Part shown: positions 1-12,368 of the stretch, piece by piece
How positions within the stretch are numbered: position 1 is the stretch's first letter
Layout: every line of letters begins with the position of its first letter
Assembly (NCBI GenBank): GCA_030550025.1
Contig: JAUQQC010000005.1
Span: 138,857 to 202,856 of the forward strand
DNA length: 64,000 bases
Reading direction: 5' to 3'
Source of the DNA: Acidobacteriota bacterium
GTDB taxonomy: Bacteria; Acidobacteriota; Blastocatellia; HR10
The notes under the pieces: model-generated
Seen by the model: only the letters and a program-made list of their open reading frames with translations
What the model was told of the DNA's origin: nothing
Databases searched by the model: none
Program-made: the position numbers and the translations under genes

Positions 1-414
1 GAGCGTGCGAACCGGACGATGCCGGAAATCTTCGGCCCCGACCTCTTGCAGCACGCGAGCGATGCGCTCCTCAGCCTCTCGACCCAAGGCATAGAGGGCG
101 GCGTAGAACCTGAGATTCTCCTCGGCCGAGAGATCCTCGTACAAGAATGACGCATGCGCGAGGAGACCGATGCGCCGCTTCACGTCCGGCGTTGGGCGTA
201 GTTGACCGAAGACAAGGACTCGACCTGAGGTCGGCTTCAGCAAAAAAGCGGCCACGCGAAGAAGCGTAGATTTCCCCGCGCCATTGCCGCCGGTGAGGGC
301 CACGATCTCCCCGGGACCGAGGGCGAAACTCACTTGCCAGAGGGCGACGGTCTCCCCGAACGTCTTGCAGACGCCTTCAAAAACGAGCGCCTTAGAGCCA
401 AGGGTCTCACTCAT
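1..414 (-). CDS. ccmA: ABC transporter ATP-binding protein, CcmA-like heme exporter subunit (3' end outside window)
   Basis: Minus-strand frame from ATG at 412-414 translates MSETLGSKALVFEGVCKTF...LTGGNGAGKSTLLRVAAFLL (Walker A, ABC ATPase N-terminus). Frame stays open to position 1. Lies directly downstream of ccmE. Confidence 0.55.
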   Translation of the reverse strand, partial: MSETLGSKALVFEGVCKTFGETVALWQVSFALGPGEIVALTGGNGAGKSTLLRVAAFLLKPTSGRVLVFGQLRPTPDVKRRIGLLAHASFLYEDLSAEENLRFYAALYALGREAEERIARVLQEVGAEDFRHRPVRTL

Positions 415-462: not shown

Positions 463-885
463 TCACGTCCCCGGCGAAGCCGACGAGCCACCCCCTTCCG
501 CCGGTTCGTACTTGGACGCGCATTTGGCCTGCAGCTTCTGAGCGTGAAAGACGCCGTCCTCGCCCCATCGCCCTTCGACGAGCGCTTCCGCATGATCCAC
601 GAAGGTATCGGGCACAGGGTCTCGCCCCACGTAGATGACGGGCAAGGTCTCCGAGTCCTGCTCGAGCAAGAACTTCACGCGCCGCCCTTCACGCTGAATG
701 CTACCCGGAACGACGCGCCCGCCGACCCGTAGTCGCTTCTCCCGAACGTTCTCGCCCATGCGCTTCAATTCGGCGACCGTGATGTAATAGGTCTTGCTCT
801 CCTGCATGCCGATCACGGCCAACCACGCCAGTGCCCCAAGCAGGATCACAATAGCGACGGCGAATTTCACCTTCGGATTGCTCAT
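463..885 (-). CDS. ccmE: cytochrome c-type biogenesis heme chaperone CcmE (CxxxY variant)
   Basis: ORF track 140 aa. N-terminal membrane anchor KFAVAIVILLGALAWLAV, then RLRVGGRVVPGSIQREG...VKFLL as in CcmE. C-terminal QAKCASKY aligns to the heme-binding LAKHDENY region of E. coli CcmE, with Cys where His is expected. Confidence 0.8.
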   Translation of the reverse strand: MSNPKVKFAVAIVILLGALAWLAVIGMQESKTYYITVAELKRMGENVREKRLRVGGRVVPGSIQREGRRVKFLLEQDSETLPVIYVGRDPVPDTFVDHAEALVEGRWGEDGVFHAQKLQAKCASKYEPAEGGGSSASPGT

Positions 886-997: not shown

Positions 998-2197
998 TCA
1001 CGCAGACGTCTCGGCATCGGCACGCAACGCGGCTTCAAGGGCGTGCTGAAGCGCGCGACGCTTGGCCTCATAGTCCGCCTCGGAGATCTCCCCGCGCTGC
1101 CGCTGAAGTTCGAGCACAAAGAGTTCCTCCTTCAACGCGTCCATCCGATGGGGAACGCGTGAAGGGGCGCCAGCCGGCTCCTCTTTCGCCCGCATCGCGC
1201 GCCCCTTCTGACGCCGCGCGGCGAGCACGCCGCTTGTGGCGAAGGCCACGGCCAACGCGGCCAGAATGATCCACTGCCACTTGGCGATCGGTCCCGCCAC
1301 GGCGCGGACCGATCCTCTGGTCCCTCCTTCCGACTCCTCTGCCAGAACATTCGGCGCCCGACCGCTCACGCTCACAGCGAGCTCCATCCCGGCGCGCGCA
1401 TCGTCAAGGACGTACACCGAGAGCCCCTGCTCCGATCCAAGCGGGCGAAAGCCCGGAGCCTCGACCTTCATCGGCTCAGGCACAAGCAACCGCACGCGCT
1501 CCACGTTCCAGGGAAGCACTTCGCGAATCTGCGCCCGTTCTTCCTCGTACGGGAGTTGCGTGACGACGAAGAACGGTGTCGTCCCCGGTCGCAGCGGATG
1601 CTCGATCCGCCACGTGCCGTCGCCCGCCGGCCGCGCGGCGATCGCTAGCGGCATCCCACTCTCGCCGATCACCGAGACGCGTTCGGGCCGCGCGTCTCCC
1701 GGCAGAGCGAACGCGAACATGCCTTCTGGACGAAAGAGCGTCACCGGCGGCTTCGTCTGATTCCGAACGAGGTACTCCCGCCCGACCAAGAGACGCCCTT
1801 GCACCGGTTGCACAAGATACGTGAGCCGCTCGACAGCATACGCCCCCCGTTCACGTGCTTCGTAGATGCGCAGCGTGACGGATGCGCTACCAGGGGAGAG
1901 CATCTCATGATAGTTGACGCCCTGATGCGTCACCCGCACCATCGCTGGCTTCGTCACCGCCGTCGAGAACGCGAACCGTCCCTGTGCATCCGTACGCGTC
2001 CTCTCCGCGACTTGCATCCCCTCCTCGAGCACGACCAGATGTACCTCGACGTCGGCGGCTGGCTTCCCCGTCGTACCGTTGATCACCGTGCCGCGCACCT
2101 CAGCCCATACGAGCATCGGCACGCCAAGAAAAATCAGCATCCCACCCCACCGGAGATACGGCCAGAGCGGCCGTTCATAATGATGCCGTCGGTCCAC
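998..2197 (-). CDS. membrane-anchored protein of unknown function: carboxypeptidase-regulatory-like beta region, C-terminal TM and SHOCT-like tail
   Basis: ORF track 399 aa. GTG start at 2195-2197 preceded by GGAGGGAGG. Motif GTVINGTTGKPAADVEVHLV...TDAQGRFAF, C-terminal TM WQWIILAALAVAFATSGVL, tail ELQRQRGEISEADYEAKRRAL. Confidence 0.6.
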   Translation of the reverse strand: MDRRHHYERPLWPYLRWGGMLIFLGVPMLVWAEVRGTVINGTTGKPAADVEVHLVVLEEGMQVAERTRTDAQGRFAFSTAVTKPAMVRVTHQGVNYHEMLSPGSASVTLRIYEARERGAYAVERLTYLVQPVQGRLLVGREYLVRNQTKPPVTLFRPEGMFAFALPGDARPERVSVIGESGMPLAIAARPAGDGTWRIEHPLRPGTTPFFVVTQLPYEEERAQIREVLPWNVERVRLLVPEPMKVEAPGFRPLGSEQGLSVYVLDDARAGMELAVSVSGRAPNVLAEESEGGTRGSVRAVAGPIAKWQWIILAALAVAFATSGVLAARRQKGRAMRAKEEPAGAPSRVPHRMDALKEELFVLELQRQRGEISEADYEAKRRALQHALEAALRADAETSA

Positions 2198-2227: not shown

Positions 2228-2527
2228 TCAGTGCGGAGGCGAAACGCGCGCCGCGTCTTCCGATGAGAGCTTCTCCAATTCCGCGAGCACAGCGGCGATC
2301 TCGGCCTCCAAGGTCGCGCGCGCCTGCTCGTAATCGGCTTCCGAGAGCTTCCCCGCGCGATATTCGAAGCGCAAGTCCCTCAGATTCTCGAGCAGCTGCT
2401 CCTTCTTCTCCATCAGGACGGCCCATCGGTCCCTCATGCGCTCGACCTCCGACCCTTCCTCGAAGAAGACGTACATGAGCGTCACGAGCGTCAGAACGCC
2501 GCACAGGATCACGACGAGAATGGTCAC
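2228..2527 (-). CDS. small single-pass membrane protein with SHOCT-like C-terminal motif, translationally coupled to ccmH-like gene
   Basis: In-frame GTG at 2525-2527 preceded by GGGAGG and overlapping the upstream stop (GTGA). About 99 aa: TM MTILVVILCGVLTLVTLMYVFF, then charged tail with RAGKLSEADYEQARATL. The longer track ORF (to 2638) would overlap ccmH by 114 nt. Confidence 0.5.
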   Translation of the reverse strand: MTILVVILCGVLTLVTLMYVFFEEGSEVERMRDRWAVLMEKKEQLLENLRDLRFEYRAGKLSEADYEQARATLEAEIAAVLAELEKLSSEDAARVSPPH

Positions 2528-3051
2528 GAGGGTCCTCCCAATTCCTTCTCGATCTCCCGACGCACGCGCTCGCGCCACGCGGGATCCTCCAGAATCGGTG
2601 CACCTTCCACCGGCGCCATGGCGTGTCGTCGAGACCACCGCCGGAGCACCAGGGCGATGAGCACGAGTCCTCCAGCCGCCGCCGCAAACGGCGTGAGCCA
2701 GGCTGCCAGATTAAACCCCTGCGCCGGAGGAGCCGCCAGCACGGCCGTCCCATATTGCTGAATCATCGCCTGAATGGCCAGATCATCGCTCTCATAACGT
2801 CGCACGGCCTGTCGCAATGTCTCGATGGCCGGCCCGGAAAACGGACAGTTTCGATGATTGCACTCGACCAAAATCTGATTGCATCCGCAGAGGCAGAGGA
2901 GCTTCTTCCCGATGCGCTTGACCCGCTCCTCGAACATCTGCGCGGATTGTGCCCGCACCAAGTGCGGAGCGATGACGAGCGCTCCGAGAAAGAGGAGCCC
3001 GATCCATCGCCCGCGATGCCCTTCAATCGCCCTTCGCATACGCAACCTCAC
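2524..3051 (-). CDS. ccmH: CcmH/NrfF-like cytochrome c biogenesis protein with atypical Cys-rich motif
   Basis: ORF track 175 aa. N-terminal hydrophobic segment, Cys-rich KKLLCLCGCNQILVECNHRNC where CcmH has LRCxxC, then a TM (AAWLTPFAAAAGGLVLIALVL) as in CcmH. Start may be Met5 (3039). Confidence 0.6.
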   Translation of the reverse strand: MRLRMRRAIEGHRGRWIGLLFLGALVIAPHLVRAQSAQMFEERVKRIGKKLLCLCGCNQILVECNHRNCPFSGPAIETLRQAVRRYESDDLAIQAMIQQYGTAVLAAPPAQGFNLAAWLTPFAAAAGGLVLIALVLRRWSRRHAMAPVEGAPILEDPAWRERVRREIEKELGGPS

Positions 3052-5056
3052 GTTCCCGAGCCCGGGCGCGCTCGGAGACGGCGACCTTCATCGGCCGACG
3101 CCCGGGATATAACGCGACGAGCGTCCCCAAGAGCACGATCCCTCCACCAATCCACAACCACCGCACGAGCGGATTCACATAGGCATGGATGATCGGCATG
3201 CCCGTCTCCGAGTTCACTCCCGCGAAGTAGATATAGAGGTCCTCGCGCCATCCCGAATGGATCGTCACCTTTGTGAGCGGCTGCTCGCTCGCCGTGTAGA
3301 GCCGTCGCTCCGGCTCAAGCGTCGTGAGCCGTTCATCGCCCCGACGCACCTCGAGCGTGAGGCGCTCGTAGATATAATTCGGCGTCTCTCCCCGCGCCCG
3401 ATCCTTCAAGGTCACGGCATAGCGCCCCAGCTCCATCGTCGAGCCCACGGTCATCTCCATCTCGCGCTCTTTCTCGAAGGCCGATCCGGCGATCCCGATG
3501 GCCATCACGACGATGCCGAAATGCACAACGTACCCTCCATATCGTCGCGTGTTCCGCAGCACTAGTTCCAGAAGCGCGTGCGCCCACGTCCGCCCCGTCT
3601 GCGAGCGGATGACGCGCGCCCCCCGATAGAACTCGCTCACAATGGTCACGGTCACAAATGCCGAGAGTCCGAAGGCCAGAAGGGCATAAGGGTCTCGTAC
3701 GCCGAAGACGAAGAGAAGCGCGCCGGTCGCCGCCCCAATGAGCGTCGGATACGTGAAATTCCGCTTCAGGCTCTCCCACGACGTCCGTCGCCAGGCCAAA
3801 AGCGGCCCTACCCCCGTCAGCAACAGCAGAAGCAGAAAGATCGGGATGTTCACCCGATTGAAGAACGGCGGCCCGACGCTCACCTTGCTCCCGGTCACCG
3901 CCTCCGAGATCACCGGAAAGAGCGTCCCCCAGAGCACGGCGAAACAGGCCGCCAGCAACACCAGATTGTTGAAGAGGAAGGAAGACTCGCGCGAGAGCAC
4001 GGCTTCCAGTCGATGTTCGCTCCGCAAGTAGTCCCGACGACGGGAGAAGAAGAACAGGCACACGGCGAAGACCAGCAACAAGAATCCGGAGAACCAGTGC
4101 CCGATCGGCGATTGAGCGAACGCATGCACCGAACTCACCACGCCCGAGCGCGTCAGGAACGTGCCGAAGACGCAAAGTAAGAAGGTGATGAAGACGAGCC
4201 AGACGTTCCACACCTTGAGCATGCCCCGACGCTCCTGCATCATCACCGAATGGAGGAAGGCCGTCCCCGTCAGCCAAGGCATGAACGACGCGTTCTCAAC
4301 AGGATCCCATCCCCAGTACCCCCCCCACCCGAGGACGGCATACGCCCAGTGCGCCCCCATCAAAATGCCCAACGTCAGAAAGCCCCAGGCGATCATCGTC
4401 CACCGGCGCGTGACGTGAATCCATCGTTCTCCCGGCGAACGCATGATCAACGCCGCGAGCGCGAAGGCGAAGGGGACGGAGAAGCCCACATACCCGAGAT
4501 AAAGCGTCGGGGGATGCAAGACCATCTCCGGATATTGCAGCAACGGATTCAATCCGCGCCCGTCCGCCGGTACGAACGGACGCGTCGTCCCGTCGGACGC
4601 GATCTCCGCCAGAACGCGGAACGGACTCACGACGAAAGCATTCAGGATGAGGAAGAAGAGTTGAATCCCGGCCAGGATCACCCCGGCGAGCGGCCGCAAT
4701 TCTCCCTCCTCCCGGTGCTTCAGGAGCACGAAGAAGATATAACCGGAGAGAATCCAACTCCAGAAGAGGAGTGACCCCTCTTGCCCCGACCATAGCGCCG
4801 CGAATTTATACAAGAAGGGGAGATCACGATTGCTGTGATTCGCCACATAGGCGATCGAGAACTCGTCCGTGAGAAAAAGCCCCCACAGGCACGCCATCGC
4901 GACGCTCAACGTGGGGAAGATCACGACGCCCGCTCGCCGCGCCGTCGCCCGAAGGACGGGATGCTTCTTCAGATGGGCGACGATCCCGGCCAGGAACGCA
5001 TACGCACAGGTCGTCAGAGCCAACAAAACGGCGAAGGAGCCCAATGAGTCCATCAT
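3023..5056 (-). CDS. ccmF: cytochrome c-type biogenesis heme lyase CcmF
   Basis: ORF track. Start placed at ATGATG 5051-5056 with GGGGAGAGAGG RBS. About 677 aa polytopic protein with tryptophan-rich WWD motif WGGYWGWDPVENASFMPWL. Confidence 0.85.
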   Translation of the reverse strand: MMDSLGSFAVLLALTTCAYAFLAGIVAHLKKHPVLRATARRAGVVIFPTLSVAMACLWGLFLTDEFSIAYVANHSNRDLPFLYKFAALWSGQEGSLLFWSWILSGYIFFVLLKHREEGELRPLAGVILAGIQLFFLILNAFVVSPFRVLAEIASDGTTRPFVPADGRGLNPLLQYPEMVLHPPTLYLGYVGFSVPFAFALAALIMRSPGERWIHVTRRWTMIAWGFLTLGILMGAHWAYAVLGWGGYWGWDPVENASFMPWLTGTAFLHSVMMQERRGMLKVWNVWLVFITFLLCVFGTFLTRSGVVSSVHAFAQSPIGHWFSGFLLLVFAVCLFFFSRRRDYLRSEHRLEAVLSRESSFLFNNLVLLAACFAVLWGTLFPVISEAVTGSKVSVGPPFFNRVNIPIFLLLLLLTGVGPLLAWRRTSWESLKRNFTYPTLIGAATGALLFVFGVRDPYALLAFGLSAFVTVTIVSEFYRGARVIRSQTGRTWAHALLELVLRNTRRYGGYVVHFGIVVMAIGIAGSAFEKEREMEMTVGSTMELGRYAVTLKDRARGETPNYIYERLTLEVRRGDERLTTLEPERRLYTASEQPLTKVTIHSGWREDLYIYFAGVNSETGMPIIHAYVNPLVRWLWIGGGIVLLGTLVALYPGRRPMKVAVSERARAREREVAYAKGD

Positions 5057-5291
5057 TCGCACCTCTCTCCCCTGGAGAGCTGAAGGTAAATGGTACCCGC
5101 GCCCCTCCGGGAGCGTCAAGCACTGAAGCTCTCCGGGATCGGACCGAGCCCCATGGGATCGAAAAGGAAGCCGCCTCGCATCACCGGGTGAGTCTCACCG
5201 CGCGGCGAAATGGCGCAGGAGCCAGTCCTCCGAACCATGGAGGTCCGGAATGGCCTTCACGATGTCGGCGTCTCGGGCCCAATCCACAGGC

Positions 5292-7884: not shown

Positions 7885-9714
7885 TCACCGCGCCAGCTTC
7901 ACCTCCGTCCAATACCGATCGTAGAGCACGGTCGTCGGACCCAGGTCCTGCAAGTATTCGCTCCGGCGCAACACCTCGGGGGGGAGAGAGAAGATCGGAT
8001 GCCGTTGCAGCTCCGGACGCAGCCGCGGCCACGCCGAACGGTTGGGCATGAGGTACATGATCTCGTTCATGTTCTCGGCGGCGACGGTCGGGTCCAACAA
8101 GAAATTGATGAACTCATGGGCGAGATCGGGACGCTCGGCCGAGCGCGGGATGCAGAGATTGTCCACGATGAGCGTCGTCCCCTCGCGCGGGATCACGAAC
8201 TCGATGTTCGGATTCTCCCGACGCGCCTTGAGGATCTGTCCATCCCACGCTTGAGCGATCCACGCTTCACCGCTCAAAAGGAGTTGGTCGAAATTCGCAC
8301 TGTCGTAGGCGCGCACGAGCGGCTTCTGTCGGCGCAGCAGATCGCGCGCCTGTCGAAGCTGCTCCGGATCGGTGCTGTTCAGGGAATAGCCGAGAAGCTT
8401 CAACGCGGCGCCGAACACCTCGCGCATGTCATCGAGCATCACGATGCGCTCGCGCCATCGCGCCTCCCAGAGATCAGCCCAGCTCCCGATGGGGGCGGCG
8501 ATCTTGTCCTTCCGGTATCCGATGCCCGTGATCCCACGCGTATAAGGAAGCGAGTAGGTGTTCGTGGGATCGAATGGGAGACCAAGCGCTGAAGGGTCGA
8601 GATGTCGGAGGTTCGGCAGCCGCGTCAGATCGAGCGGTTGCAACAGGTTCTCCCGAATGAGGATGCGCACCATGTAATCGCTCGGGACGATGAGGTCGTA
8701 AGTGACCACGCCCGCCTGCAGCTTCGCCAGGAGCGCTTCGTTGGAATCGTAGGTCTCGATGTTCACTTTGACTCCCGTCTTCTCCTCAAAAGCGCGCACG
8801 ACGCGCGACGAGATATAATTGGACCAGATGAGCACGTTCAACGTCGCGCGCGGGCGCCGCGCGACGCTGTCGCCGAAGGCGAAGCCCACTAATCCCAACA
8901 GGAGGAGCCCGACCAACACCAGATGCGTGCGCGTCATCCCCCGCCGCTCGATGCGGAAGGCCAAGGCCATGAGCGCGAGCGTCACCAGAAGCAGGAGCGT
9001 CGAAATGGCGTTCACCTCGGGCGTGATCCCCGTCTTGATCATCGAATAGATGCGCAAAGGGAGCGTCGTCGCGCCGGCTCCGGCAACGAACGACGTGATG
9101 ACGTAGTCATCGAGCGAGAGGGTGAAGACCAAGAGCGCCGAGGCCGCGATCGCCGGAGCCAGAAGCGGCAGGGTGACCTTCCAAAAGACGCGCCACGGAT
9201 TGGCCCCCAGGTCCATCGCCGCTTCTTCCAATCGCGGATCGAGCGTGGCCAGACGCGCGCGCACGACGAAGAAGACGTAGGAGACGCTGAAGGCGACGTG
9301 AGCGATGAGGACCGTCAGCAACCCGAGCCGCAGACCGATCCAGCCGAAGAAGGTGACCGACGCGAATCCGACGACGATCTCCGGCACGACGATCGGCAAC
9401 ACAAAGAGCGTTTCCGAGAGCGAGCGCAGACGTCCGCGCCATCGCTCCAGCGCGAGCACGGCGCTCGTCCCCAGCGCCGTGGCGATGAGCGTCGTGAGCG
9501 CAGCTATCAGCAAGCTCGTGCGCAGAGCGTCGAGCATCGGCGGATTGCTGAGGGCCGCTTTGTACCACGTCCAAGTGAATCCGCGCCACACGGCCAGAAG
9601 CCGCGAGTCGTTGAAGGAGAAGACGGCCAGCACGAGGATCGGTGCATAGAGGAACAGATAGGTCGCCCCCATCCACACCGCGAGGATCGGCGATGTCCGG
9701 GCACGCGCACTCAT
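7885..9714 (-). CDS. potC: spermidine/putrescine ABC transporter permease PotC fused in frame to periplasmic polyamine-binding protein PotD
   Basis: ORF track 7885..10269. ATG at 9712-9714 (MSARARTSPILAVWMGATYLF...) overlaps the potB stop. About 259-aa permease part with EAAMDLGANPWRVFWKVTLPL, then no stop before MTRTHLVLVGLLLLGLVGFAFG and a 350-aa PotD/PotF-type binding domain (NVLIWSNYISSRVVRAFEEKTGVKVNIETYDSNEALLAKL). PotD part begins at the ATG at 8935-8937. Confidence 0.75.
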   Translation of the reverse strand: MSARARTSPILAVWMGATYLFLYAPILVLAVFSFNDSRLLAVWRGFTWTWYKAALSNPPMLDALRTSLLIAALTTLIATALGTSAVLALERWRGRLRSLSETLFVLPIVVPEIVVGFASVTFFGWIGLRLGLLTVLIAHVAFSVSYVFFVVRARLATLDPRLEEAAMDLGANPWRVFWKVTLPLLAPAIAASALLVFTLSLDDYVITSFVAGAGATTLPLRIYSMIKTGITPEVNAISTLLLLVTLALMALAFRIERRGMTRTHLVLVGLLLLGLVGFAFGDSVARRPRATLNVLIWSNYISSRVVRAFEEKTGVKVNIETYDSNEALLAKLQAGVVTYDLIVPSDYMVRILIRENLLQPLDLTRLPNLRHLDPSALGLPFDPTNTYSLPYTRGITGIGYRKDKIAAPIGSWADLWEARWRERIVMLDDMREVFGAALKLLGYSLNSTDPEQLRQARDLLRRQKPLVRAYDSANFDQLLLSGEAWIAQAWDGQILKARRENPNIEFVIPREGTTLIVDNLCIPRSAERPDLAHEFINFLLDPTVAAENMNEIMYLMPNRSAWPRLRPELQRHPIFSLPPEVLRRSEYLQDLGPTTVLYDRYWTEVKLAR

Positions 9715-10559
9715 CGTCCTCTCCTTGAGCGCGCCGTGCGCGAGGCGATCCACAGCAACGCCAGCACGACGACGACGAGCAGGACCGAGAGCGCTGAGCC
9801 CATCGGTTGATTCCGCTGCACGAACTGATTCTGGATGACCGTGCCGATCATCGCCGACTTCGCCCCGCCGAGCAAATCCGGCGTGATGAATGCCCCCAGG
9901 CTCGGGATGAACACGAGGACGATCCCCGTGATGATCCCCGGCCTCGTCAGCGGGAGCACAATACGCCAGAAGACCTGGCGGCGATTCGCTCCGAGGTCCA
10001 TCGCCGCTTCCATCACGCGCACATCCACGCGCTCCAGCGCCACATAAAGCGGCAGGATCATGAAGGGCAGTTCGCCATAGACCTGTCCGATCACCACGGC
10101 GAAGTCCGAGTAGAGAAGCCAGGAGATCGGACGCTCGATCACCCCCAGAGCGAGCAGCGTCGTATTCACAAAACCTTCCACGCGAAGCAGGAACATCCAC
10201 GCATATGTGCGCAACAGGAAGCTCGTCCAGAAGGGGAGAATCGAGAGGACCAGCAGCAGATTCTTCCACTTCGGATCAGCGCGCAGGGCGATGTAGTAGG
10301 CGACCGGATAGCTGACCACCAGGCAGAGCGCCGTCGTCACCGCCGCCAGGGCGAAGGAACGCCCGTAGACCCAAAGGTAAAGGGGGGCCATCGCCTGCCG
10401 ATAATTCCACAGCCCGAACGTCCACCGCACACCGCCGTAGAGGCCGCGTTCGGCGAAACTCATGACGACGATGAGTCCTAACGGGAGGAGGAAGAACAGG
10501 AGCAACCAGAGGGCAGAAGGGGCGAGCAGCAACCAACGGTTCGCATTCGTCTCCCGCAT
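9711..10559 (-). CDS. potB: spermidine/putrescine ABC transporter permease PotB
   Basis: ORF track. Start set to ATG 10557-10559 (MRETNANRWLLLAP...) just below the potA stop. Permease motif EAAMDLGANRRQVFWRIVLPL. Confidence 0.8.
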   Translation of the reverse strand: MRETNANRWLLLAPSALWLLLFFLLPLGLIVVMSFAERGLYGGVRWTFGLWNYRQAMAPLYLWVYGRSFALAAVTTALCLVVSYPVAYYIALRADPKWKNLLLVLSILPFWTSFLLRTYAWMFLLRVEGFVNTTLLALGVIERPISWLLYSDFAVVIGQVYGELPFMILPLYVALERVDVRVMEAAMDLGANRRQVFWRIVLPLTRPGIITGIVLVFIPSLGAFITPDLLGGAKSAMIGTVIQNQFVQRNQPMGSALSVLLVVVVLALLWIASRTARSRRGR

Positions 10560-10566
10560 TTCGTCC

Positions 10567-11658
10567 TCACCGAGAGAGGACGACGATGCTCTCGCGCGTC
10601 CAGCAGAGGAAGACGCGCTGCCCGTCACGGAAGGCGTCGGCTTTCGAGCCCGGGCGATTCGGCTCGGTCACGGTGACGTAGTGCTCCCCGACGCGCACGC
10701 GCCAATGCGTGGCTTCGCCCAGATACAGGCATTCCTCGATCACCCCCTCCAGTTGCACGAGATCGGTCCGGCGCAACGGGCGCGCGCGCAAGGCGATCTT
10801 CTCCGGGCGAATGGCCACCTGAGCCCGCGAGCCCTCGATTCGCCGCCCGTTAAGCGGGACCCGCACCGTGTGCCCGCACAGCCCCAGGAGCGCATCGCCG
10901 TTCTCACGGTGCAGGATCTCGGCCTCCAAGACATTGGCCGCCCCGAGAAAGGTCGCGACGAAGGCCGTCTCCGGACGCTCGTACACCTCGCGAGGCGTGC
11001 CGATCTGTTGCAGGCGTCCATCGGCGATCACGGCGATCCGATCCGACAGGGCCAGGGCTTCTTCCTGATCGTGCGTGACCAGGAGAAAGCTGATGCCGAC
11101 CTCGCGCTGCAAGCGCTTCAACTCGCGTTGCATCTCTTTGCGAAGTTGGAGATCGAGCGCCGCCAGCGGTTCATCCAGAAGCAGCGCTTCCGGCTCCAGC
11201 ACGAGCGCGCGCGCCAGGGCCACGCGCTGCTGCTCGCCGCCAGACAGCTCGTGCGGCCATCGCCGTTCGTATCCCGAGAGCCGCACCAACTCCAACGCCG
11301 CGGCAACCCGTCGCTCGATCTCCCGTCGCGAGAGCCGCTTCTGCTCCAGTCCGAAAGCGACGTTCCGATACACGTTCAGGTGTGGGAAGAGGACATATTG
11401 CTGGAAGACCGTGTGCACGCGCCGCCGATAGGGGGGGACGTCGGTCACGTCTTCACCGCCCAAATACACGCGCCCGTCATCCGGTCGTTCCAACCCGGCG
11501 ATCACCCGCAAGAGCGTCGTCTTCCCCGAGCCCGAAGGACCGAGCAACGTGAGGAACTCGCCGCGTTCGACTTCCAACGAGACCGCCTCAAGCGCTGTGA
11601 CCGCACCGTAGCGCTTGGTCACGCCCTCCACGCGAATCGCACTGGTTGCGGTCGCCAT
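10567..11658 (-). CDS. potA: spermidine/putrescine ABC transporter ATP-binding protein PotA
   Basis: ORF track 363 aa. Walker A GPSGSGKTTLLR, signature LSGGEQQRVALARAL, Walker B LLLDEPLAALD, C-terminal regulatory domain. Confidence 0.85.
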   Translation of the reverse strand: MATATSAIRVEGVTKRYGAVTALEAVSLEVERGEFLTLLGPSGSGKTTLLRVIAGLERPDDGRVYLGGEDVTDVPPYRRRVHTVFQQYVLFPHLNVYRNVAFGLEQKRLSRREIERRVAAALELVRLSGYERRWPHELSGGEQQRVALARALVLEPEALLLDEPLAALDLQLRKEMQRELKRLQREVGISFLLVTHDQEEALALSDRIAVIADGRLQQIGTPREVYERPETAFVATFLGAANVLEAEILHRENGDALLGLCGHTVRVPLNGRRIEGSRAQVAIRPEKIALRARPLRRTDLVQLEGVIEECLYLGEATHWRVRVGEHYVTVTEPNRPGSKADAFRDGQRVFLCWTRESIVVLSR

Positions 11659-11786
11659 CGTTCGTCTTCGGGGCTATAAAATAAACGAGTCGGCAGGTCC
11701 GGCGCAAGCCTCCGAAGATGCGAACACCGCGCGGCGGTGAGCGTTTCCTCGCCGAAGGCGCTGCGCGCGCTCGAAGCGGCTCTCTC

Positions 11787-12368
11787 TCAGGGGACGTCGC
11801 CGAAGGCCCCCTCGATCAGTTCGCACAAGATGTGGCCGAGCGTGATATGCGTCTCTTGAATGCGCGCCGTCTCTTCCGAGGGGACGACGAGCGGCACATC
11901 CACGAGCCGTCCGACCGGACCCCCGTCGCGCCCCAGCAGGCCAATCGTGCGCAGACCGAGCCGTCGCGCCGTCTCCACAGCGCGCACGACATTGGGCGAA
12001 CGACCGCTCGTGCTGATGGCGACGGCGACATCGCCCGGTTCCCCGAGCGCCTCGATCTGTCGGCTGAAGACGTCCTCGAACGAAGTGTCGTTGGCGATCG
12101 AGGTCAGAATGGACGTATCCGTCGTCAGCGCCAGAGCGGCGAGCGCTGGACGCTCCCGCCGATAGCGATTGACCAATTCCGCGGCCAGATGCTGCGCATC
12201 GGCCGCGCTGCCGCCGTTCCCGAAAAAGAGGACCTTATGGCCGGCGCGCAGCGCGGCGATCATCAGCTCGGCCGCGCGCGCCACTTCCTCGGCATGCGCT
12301 TCGAAGAAGCGCTCTTTCACGCGCACGGATTCGCGAGCCGAGGCTTTGATGCGTTCGACGGTCGTCAT
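11787..12368 (-). CDS. SIS-domain phosphoheptose isomerase (GmhA-like)
   Basis: ORF track 193 aa. [20 protein letters not shown] and [15 protein letters not shown] are typical of GmhA/DiaA SIS proteins. Confidence 0.65.

Follow-up and report, generated by a model that had tools for sequence, protein, structure and literature searches.

A five-cysteine CcmH variant encoded directly after ccmF accompanies a cysteine-type CcmE in an Acidobacteriota ccm operon

The window, by which we mean the whole 64,000-nucleotide stretch of DNA analysed here, carries on its minus strand a ccm operon that begins with ccmF (positions 3023–5119, minus strand). The ccmF product, the heme lyase, is recognised by CcmF_C (245.8 bits), Cytochrom_C_asm (137.9 bits), and TIGR00353 (457.7 bits), and the 3′ end of its gene overlaps the start of the gene of interest, which we call ccmH* (2524–3051, minus strand). 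The ORF list, Pfam, and an AF2 model compared by Foldseek all describe ccmH* as encoding a CcmH-family protein of 175 residues. Translation is taken to start at a GTG at 3051; an alternative ATG at 3039 corresponds to the start of the closest homologue, P0001. A look-up of the exact protein sequence returned no record.

Two genes of less familiar type follow. Gene X (2228–2527, minus strand) has a GTG start that overlaps the stop codon of ccmH* (GTGA) and encodes a small membrane protein with one transmembrane helix and a coiled coil containing RAGKLSEADYE. Its product matched no family in Pfam or NCBIfam and was defined from its sequence and from its conservation after ccmH* in Acidobacteriota and Chloroflexota. 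Gene Y (998–2197, minus strand; 399 residues) was assigned from a match to Pfam PF13620 at 32.6 bits and from conserved synteny, and its product combines a signal peptide, a CarboxypepD_reg-like β-sandwich, a transmembrane helix, and a cytoplasmic tail containing GEISEADYE. The two genes share a motif of the G-K-L-S-E-A-D-Y-E type, and the X products of other lineages additionally carry zinc ribbons. Beyond Y lie a Cys-type ccmE (463–885, minus strand), identified by Pfam CcmE at 86.9 bits and by phmmer alignment, and the 5′ part of ccmA (1–414, minus strand), an ABC ATPase gene that runs off the start of the window and whose translation reads MSETLGSKALVFEGVCKTFG...GGNGAGKSTLL.

The operon order, ccmF-ccmH*-X-Y-ccmE(Cys)-ccmABC(D), is the same in the closest public relative, a Blastocatellia MAG with 88% identity. 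There, at locus L203, the homologous operon continues with ccmA-ccmB-ccmC and a 49-residue ORF. An unrelated Acidobacteria MAG has the arrangement ccmE-F-H*-X-Y-A-B-C, followed by a 45-residue ORF and then ferrochelatase. Passage from ccmF to ccmH* is also seen at L081, L203, and L204, where the X-Y pair occupies positions 10539–12127, 10513–12044, and 10478–12221, respectively. X and Y are found after ccmF as well in Cys-type loci that lack CcmH (L096, L117, L120, L150, L160, L172, L184, and L191). As a candidate role, X and Y may be CcmI-like partners in apocytochrome handling. No CXXCH-containing ORF of 100 residues or more is present in the 64-kb window despite the ccm operon; the cytochrome substrates are encoded outside the window.

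The assignment of ccmH* to the CcmH family draws on several kinds of comparison. Residues 31–145 align to positions 16–127 of the 143-position Pfam profile PF03918 with a score of 62.9 bits, against a gathering cut-off of 25. An AF2 model built from 20 homologues (pLDDT 81) predicts a three-helix periplasmic bundle like that of P. aeruginosa CcmH (2HL7) and of the N-domain of E. coli CcmH (2KW0). When the model was compared with the PDB by Foldseek, these two structures were the best matches (for 2HL7, TM 0.71 and rmsd 2.1 Å over 72 columns) and the only ones at probability 1.00, with the remainder at noise level. A direct phmmer search of CcmH* against PDB sequences gave no meaningful match and a profile search was needed; the family profile recovers 2KW0 and 2HL7 by sequence as well, with E about 5e-7. 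The gene also adjoins ccmF and encodes a membrane anchor, as expected of a subunit of the CcmF/H heme lyase. Together, the Pfam profile, the predicted fold, and the position directly after ccmF identify the product of the ORF as a true CcmH. The sequence-only reading had called the protein CcmH-like while allowing that alignment might place it outside the family; the profile alignment and the structure prediction both put it inside.

The sole NCBIfam match of CcmH* is to TIGR03147, the profile for NrfF, a CcmH paralogue of the same Pfam family, and one could ask whether CcmH* is NrfF or another CcmH paralogue specialised for an unusual heme-binding motif. We consider this highly improbable. 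The match reaches 23.8 bits, far below the cut-off of 159.2, the gene is found within a complete general ccm operon (ccmF-H*-X-Y-E-A-B-C-D), and the window holds neither nrfA nor a CXXCH ORF of at least 100 residues. Identity as NrfF was rejected on the basis of this score and the absence of any nrf context.

What sets CcmH* apart from canonical CcmH is the loop between helices 1 and 2, where the canonical redox motif L-R-C-x-x-C is not matched. The minus-strand translation of 2839–2907 is KKLLCLCGCNQILVECNHRNCPF, and the place of LRCxxC...ADS is occupied by the cluster C53-L-C55-G-C57-NQILVE-C64-NHRN-C69 (2845–2895, minus strand), which we delimited from the translation, from conservation among homologues, and from alignment with 2KW0 and 2HL7. 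The sequence-only reading had placed this cluster at 2840–2905, within one or two bases of the segment translated here, and had counted five cysteines in 18 residues; the cluster is real, but C53, C55, C57, C64, and C69 span 17. It was also correct in setting the site apart from the two-Cys LRCxxC, as the loop reads L-L-C-L-C-G-C.

How the canonical cysteines map onto this loop depends on the alignment register. In the HMMER register against 2KW0 and 2HL7, canonical Cys1 corresponds to C53 and Cys2 to C57, with a one-residue insertion. In the ungapped register, Cys2 falls on the near-invariant G56 between C55 and C57, and the Ser of the canonical ADS motif falls on C64; the four-Cys CcmH of Anaerolineales (C-PV-C-x7-C-x4-C) matches this register exactly. 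Either way, Cys1 is canonical and Cys2 is displaced or duplicated, with two added cysteines to follow, and the loop is a variant of the canonical redox motif and not a loss of it. Relative to canonical CcmH, CcmH* has x-C-x-C-G-C for LRCxxC, Cys64 for the Ser of ADS, and an added fifth cysteine, whereas the first cysteine of the motif and a downstream Y-G-x-x-[LV]-x-A-P-P are common to both.

The membrane-spanning elements are shared as well, with canonical CcmH likewise having a signal/anchor and a C-terminal transmembrane helix. In CcmH* the N-terminal hydrophobic signal/anchor, WIGLLFLGALVIAPHLVRA, covers about residues 15–34 (2950–3009, minus strand), judging from the alignment of N-termini and from a long N-terminal helix in the AF2 model. 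The C-terminal transmembrane helix is predicted at about residues 115–137 (2641–2709, minus strand; AF2 helix 115–144); after it come RRWSRR and a cytoplasmic helix that is likewise conserved, DPAWRERVRREIE. Residues W118, P121, R137, R138, and W139 are conserved in the homologue alignment, and the positive-inside rule would place the tail in the cytoplasm. The aligned N-termini of CcmH* homologues have no conserved twin-arginine motif, and the idea of CcmH* as a Tat-exported cofactor protein was rejected on this ground. A covalent heme (CXnCH) motif inside the cluster was rejected too, as the C-x6-C-x-H spacing is a misfit and the His is missing from other sub-types.

All five cysteines are invariant across the 20 nearest homologues. 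Searched exhaustively with HMMER, 1.84 billion cluster representatives (50% identity) yielded 6370 matches at E<1e-3, with 111 at E<1e-30. Among the best 150 of these 6370 representatives, C-x-C-x-C-x6-C-x4-C is present exactly in 126, and about 148 have a five-Cys variant. Of the 126 representatives with the exact motif, 115 keep G56 and 96 keep N65; residue 66 is a His in 110 of them and a Met in another 10, together 95% of the main subfamily, and the motif of that subfamily reads [LM]-x-C-x-C-G-C-x6-C-[N]-[H/M]-x2-C. A Vicinamibacterales-type set has C-x-C-x2-C-x7-C-x-C (100/120 homologues), and a Chloroflexi/Dehalococcoidales/Ignavibacteria/Actinomycetota-type set has C-x-C-x-C-x6-C-x(1,4,5)-C. 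A gap of two residues between Cys2 and Cys3 turns this part of the motif into C-G-x-C, a classical CxxC. The general signature can be written C-x-C-x(1-4)-C-x(6-8)-C-x(0-10)-C and extends over Acidobacteriota, Chloroflexota, and other phyla. Conservation across the three homologue sets rules out the cluster as a product of chance or a local quirk, and these alignments mark the five cysteines as a family signature. The possibility raised earlier, that two of the cysteines would map onto the canonical pair with the others non-conserved, is not what the survey of homologues returned: C53 and C57 map roughly, and the other three are equally conserved.

Vicinamibacterales-type sequences often carry the five-Cys CcmH domain as a C-terminal extension of CcmF. 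ORFs of about 820–850 residues with this CcmF–CcmH fusion were seen at L085, L098, L100, L107, L113, L128, L134, L151, L153, L198, and L201. A different situation was observed at Gaiellales/Actinomycetes loci (within L045–L080), where CcmH-family proteins have a canonical MCPxC and both ccmF and ccmE are absent within 10 kb; these ORFs, measured stop-to-stop, often run to 300–460 residues.

The strongest correlate of the five-Cys motif is one that the sequence-only reading had not noticed, namely a Cys-type CcmE. The CcmE of the window has C122-ASK-Y126 (nt 508–522) instead of HxxxY. By phmmer, AKCASKY aligns on AKHDENY of E. coli CcmE (His130...Tyr134; 8CE8, 1SR3) and on TKCP of the D. vulgaris protein (2KCT), which identifies the window ccmE as the Cys-type that defines System I*. 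We sampled the pairing of CcmE and CcmH from both sides. On the CcmH side, 80 genome loci were collected and counts were limited to loci also holding ccmE. A CxxxY CcmE accompanies five-Cys CcmH at 13 of 13 genome loci, plus L081, the four-Cys CcmH of Anaerolineales at 5 of 5, and the three-Cys CcmH of Thermincola/Bacillota at 2 of 2, whereas canonical LRCxxC CcmH (Rokubacteria, Binatia, delta-proteobacteria) occurs with HxxxY CcmE at 7 of 7. On the CcmE side, a metagenome scan for KCPSKYE, which covers CPSKY-E motifs with TCN serine codons and misses those with AGY-Ser, gave 115 loci with a CcmE match, nearly all with a readable CPSKY. A CcmH domain is present at 19 of these 115 loci and is multi-Cys at all 19, canonical at none. 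When the samples are pooled with L081, Cys-type CcmE goes with extra-Cys CcmH at 40 of 40 loci and His-type CcmE with canonical LRCxxC at 7 of 7; for this pairing (40/0 vs 0/7) a naive Fisher test, applied to loci that are not phylogenetically independent, gives p = 1.6e-8.

The coupling is one-way in that many Cys-type systems, close CcmF relatives included, are without any CcmH. In a rough neighbor-joining tree of CcmF, drawn without support values, the His-type/canonical systems fall among those of the Cys type, indicating that CcmH type tracks CcmE type and does not reflect one simple split. We hold the CcmH identity of the ORF, together with the coupling to CcmE type, with high confidence.

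The partial forms are of some interest in themselves. The four-Cys CcmH of Anaerolineales (L057, L059, L063, L072, and L075) keeps CPVC and adds C-x4-C, and appears to stand midway between canonical CcmH and the five-Cys form. The CcmH of Thermincola/Bacillota (L038 and L040) has C-x3-C-x6-C, is paired with a Cys-type CcmE (VKCPSKY), and has the equivalent of C64 in the window but neither C55 nor C69. Both resemble CcmH* in their Cys-type CcmE partner and in having a cysteine at the position of C64; the Anaerolineales protein differs from CcmH* in its intact CxxC, its adjacent ccmG-like gene, and its lack of an inserted C55.

It could be argued that the extra cysteines form structural disulfides that stiffen the loop, for instance in thermophiles, that CcmH* otherwise functions canonically, and that the link to CcmE comes from shared operon ancestry. 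The closest relatives of the window sequence are indeed hot-spring MAGs (HR08, HR10), the canonical pair can be matched to C53 and C57, and the co-occurrence counts carry no phylogenetic correction. However, mesophilic lineages from soil and peat (Terracidiphilus, Vicinamibacterales) conserve the signature just as well, one of five cysteines is necessarily left unpaired, and the forms in which Cys4 and Cys5 are adjacent (CC) or one residue apart (CxC) suit structural disulfides poorly. The nesting in the CcmF tree, which carries no support values, also speaks against shared ancestry as the source of the CcmE link. We judge this explanation improbable and, like specialisation of the NrfF kind, less likely than either a redox relay or a metal site.

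A second feature that accompanies the five-Cys form is the loss of a neighbouring ccmG. No ORF for a WCxxC thioredoxin was found anywhere in the 64-kb window, nor a ccmG or thioredoxin gene in its ccm operon or in those of the Blastocatellia and Acidobacteria MAGs. None of the 18 five-Cys loci from genomes and none of the 19 from metagenomes has an adjacent ccmG-like gene (0/37 in total), as compared with an immediately downstream ccmG-like WCxxC gene at 5 of 5 four-Cys Anaerolineales loci, all of which keep CPVC, and a ccmG-like gene (NFWASWCxxC) next to ccmH at 3 of 7 canonical loci carrying both ccmH and ccmE. The earlier remark that ccmG is absent from the locus therefore holds in comparative terms. 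In samples of this small size, it is the C64/C69 pair that goes with Cys-type CcmE, and the inserted C55 that goes with the loss of neighbouring ccmG.

CcmH* belongs, as the CcmH subunit, to a variant System I of the kind with Cys-type CcmE known as System I*. In the canonical pathway, reducing or holding the CxxCH of the apocytochrome is the task of CcmH, whose mixed disulfide with the apocytochrome is resolved by CcmG (Scheme 2 of PMC3884852); a system without CcmG accordingly needs some other resolving thiol. Modelling has placed the CxxC of CcmH beside the WWD/P-His site of CcmF, the point at which holoCcmE delivers heme (PMC10663686). CcmE type and lyase must also match, given that E. coli CcmE H130C binds heme and fails to pass it to E. 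coli CcmFH (cited in PMC9084895).

Our leading reading, in which our confidence comes close to even without exceeding it, is that the cluster is an expanded periplasmic thiol-disulfide relay centre at the heme-lyase active site, co-adapted to Cys-type CcmE. CcmH* keeps the predicted three-helix periplasmic domain, the membrane anchor, and a presumed partnership with CcmF, its active-site loop has been rebuilt, and the expanded centre would adjoin the heme-attachment site of CcmF. C53 together with C57 (or C55) would act on the CxxCH thiols of the apocytochrome as canonical CcmH does, reducing or holding them. C55, as part of a C-G-C or C-G-x-C element, would act with C64, which takes the place of the conserved Ser of the canonical ADS motif, and with C69 as intramolecular resolving or relay thiols. 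These relay thiols would perform the role that CcmG has in the canonical pathway, combining the roles of CcmH and CcmG in one protein, and they may in addition shield the heme-binding cysteine of CcmE from dead-end disulfides or resolve such disulfides. On this reading, CcmH* probably takes over the resolving role of CcmG. Any overlap with CcmG/DsbE/ResA would be functional only, in resolving the CcmH–apocytochrome mixed disulfide: sequence and fold are unrelated, and CcmH* has neither a thioredoxin fold nor WCxxC. Three observations favour the redox relay. The motif falls exactly in the canonical redox loop, a two-residue gap between Cys2 and Cys3 yields a classical CxxC, and a ccmG-like gene is adjacent at none of the five-Cys loci but at all of the four-Cys ones.

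Other features sit less comfortably with a relay. Five is an odd number for disulfide pairs, and the gap between Cys4 and Cys5 can be 0 (CC), 1 (CxC), or up to 10 residues, a variability that is awkward for a Cys4–Cys5 disulfide and more typical of metal-thiolate ligands. The His or Met at position 66 of the main subfamily is likewise a pattern typical of metal or heme ligands. These points raise the possibility that the five cysteines, together with His/Met66, bind Zn, Cu(I), or Fe in a periplasmic metal-thiolate site that shapes the loop into a knuckle, in which case CcmH* would serve the heme lyase as a structural or chaperone subunit and not as a thiol reductant. CxC and CC elements with variable spacers resemble the motifs of metallothionein, of the Hsp33 zinc site (CxC...CxxC), and of Mac1 (CxCx4CxCxxCxxH). 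CcmH* matches no metal-binding family in Pfam or NCBIfam at E<0.01. The AF2 model has a short β-hairpin (E51-53 / E59-60) that carries CxCGC at the tip and leads into a second loop with cysteines, and the odd number of cysteines points towards a metal site. On the other hand, export without a conserved twin-arginine signal makes a pre-assembled cofactor unlikely, metal sites with cysteine ligands are uncommon in periplasmic proteins, and no Ccm component is known to use any metal besides heme iron. The Vicinamibacterales and Chloroflexi sub-types do not conserve the His/Met position, and the loss of adjacent ccmG is better explained by a redox role. On balance, we regard the metal site as the main alternative, a serious one but less probable than the redox relay. 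The sequence-only reading had likewise offered a thiol-redox and a metal-binding arrangement side by side.

The Ccm variant found in Desulfovibrio and in archaea, System I* (Allen 2006; Goddard 2010; both to the extent that they are recounted in PMC3601427 and PMC9084895), was originally defined by the absence of CcmH. A later review states that this absence does not typify the variant, as CcmH is present in about one-third of such bacteria, and makes no mention of its motif (PMC3601427). The many Cys-type systems without CcmH seen here agree with that figure. The window operon is like System I* in having a CcmE with CxxxY for HxxxY and in having no ccmG within the operon, the same two traits (no adjacent ccmG, and a Cys-type rather than a His-type CcmE partner) by which CcmH* departs from canonical CcmH at the level of the operon. 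It differs from System I* as defined in that it has a CcmH, which is always multi-Cys where sampled, followed by the conserved genes X and Y. In a bolder version of the redox relay, CcmH* would be a mechanistically distinct active-site module, required specifically for dealing with cysteine-linked holo-CcmE, that resolves CcmE-Cys adducts or disulfides at CcmF and replaces CcmG, and that constitutes with X and Y a third flavour of System I. We think this bolder version doubtful and would not expect it to prove correct. A point against the redox relay itself is that several close System I* relatives are without CcmH (PMC3601427), which implies that CcmH* is not indispensable for the chemistry of Cys-type CcmE.

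Open-access full text yielded no account of a CcmH with multiple cysteines or of a link between CcmH and CcmE type, which is not proof that none exists. Neither the family nor the pathway is new; what appears to be undescribed is the architecture of the active site, together with its distribution and its coupling to Cys-type CcmE. The databases annotate five-Cys proteins simply as CcmH, and thousands of entries under that name are not canonical. If there is a five-Cys flavour of System I, this annotation is the reason that it has gone unrecognised, and such a third flavour would be widespread, reaching across Acidobacteriota, Chloroflexota, and others.

System I biogenesis still raises the questions of how CcmE releases its heme and how the thiols of the apocytochrome are handled at the active site of CcmF/H. 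System I* is puzzling, because the thioether between heme and cysteine is expected to be hard to break and because the system had been taken to work without CcmH or CcmG. The present survey adds that where Cys-type systems do have CcmH, this CcmH has a conserved multi-Cys centre at every sampled locus, with the five-Cys form going along with loss of neighbouring ccmG. C55, C64, C69, and H66 are residues that can be mutated for testing the chemistry, and the four-Cys and three-Cys forms provide natural intermediates. Acidobacteria and Chloroflexi are major phyla of soil and sediment with many multiheme cytochromes, and they appear to mature these cytochromes by way of an uncharacterised ccmF-H*-X-Y module.

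Apart from the ccm operon, one further ORF of the window can be mentioned. The longest, at 7885–10269 on the minus strand, has 794 codons and contains an ABC-transporter permease region and a periplasmic solute-binding region, and looks like a permease/binding-protein fusion. Its homologue at L203 is called as 609 residues (BPD_transp_1 + SBP_bac), and the N-terminal 185 residues of the window ORF are probably untranslated.
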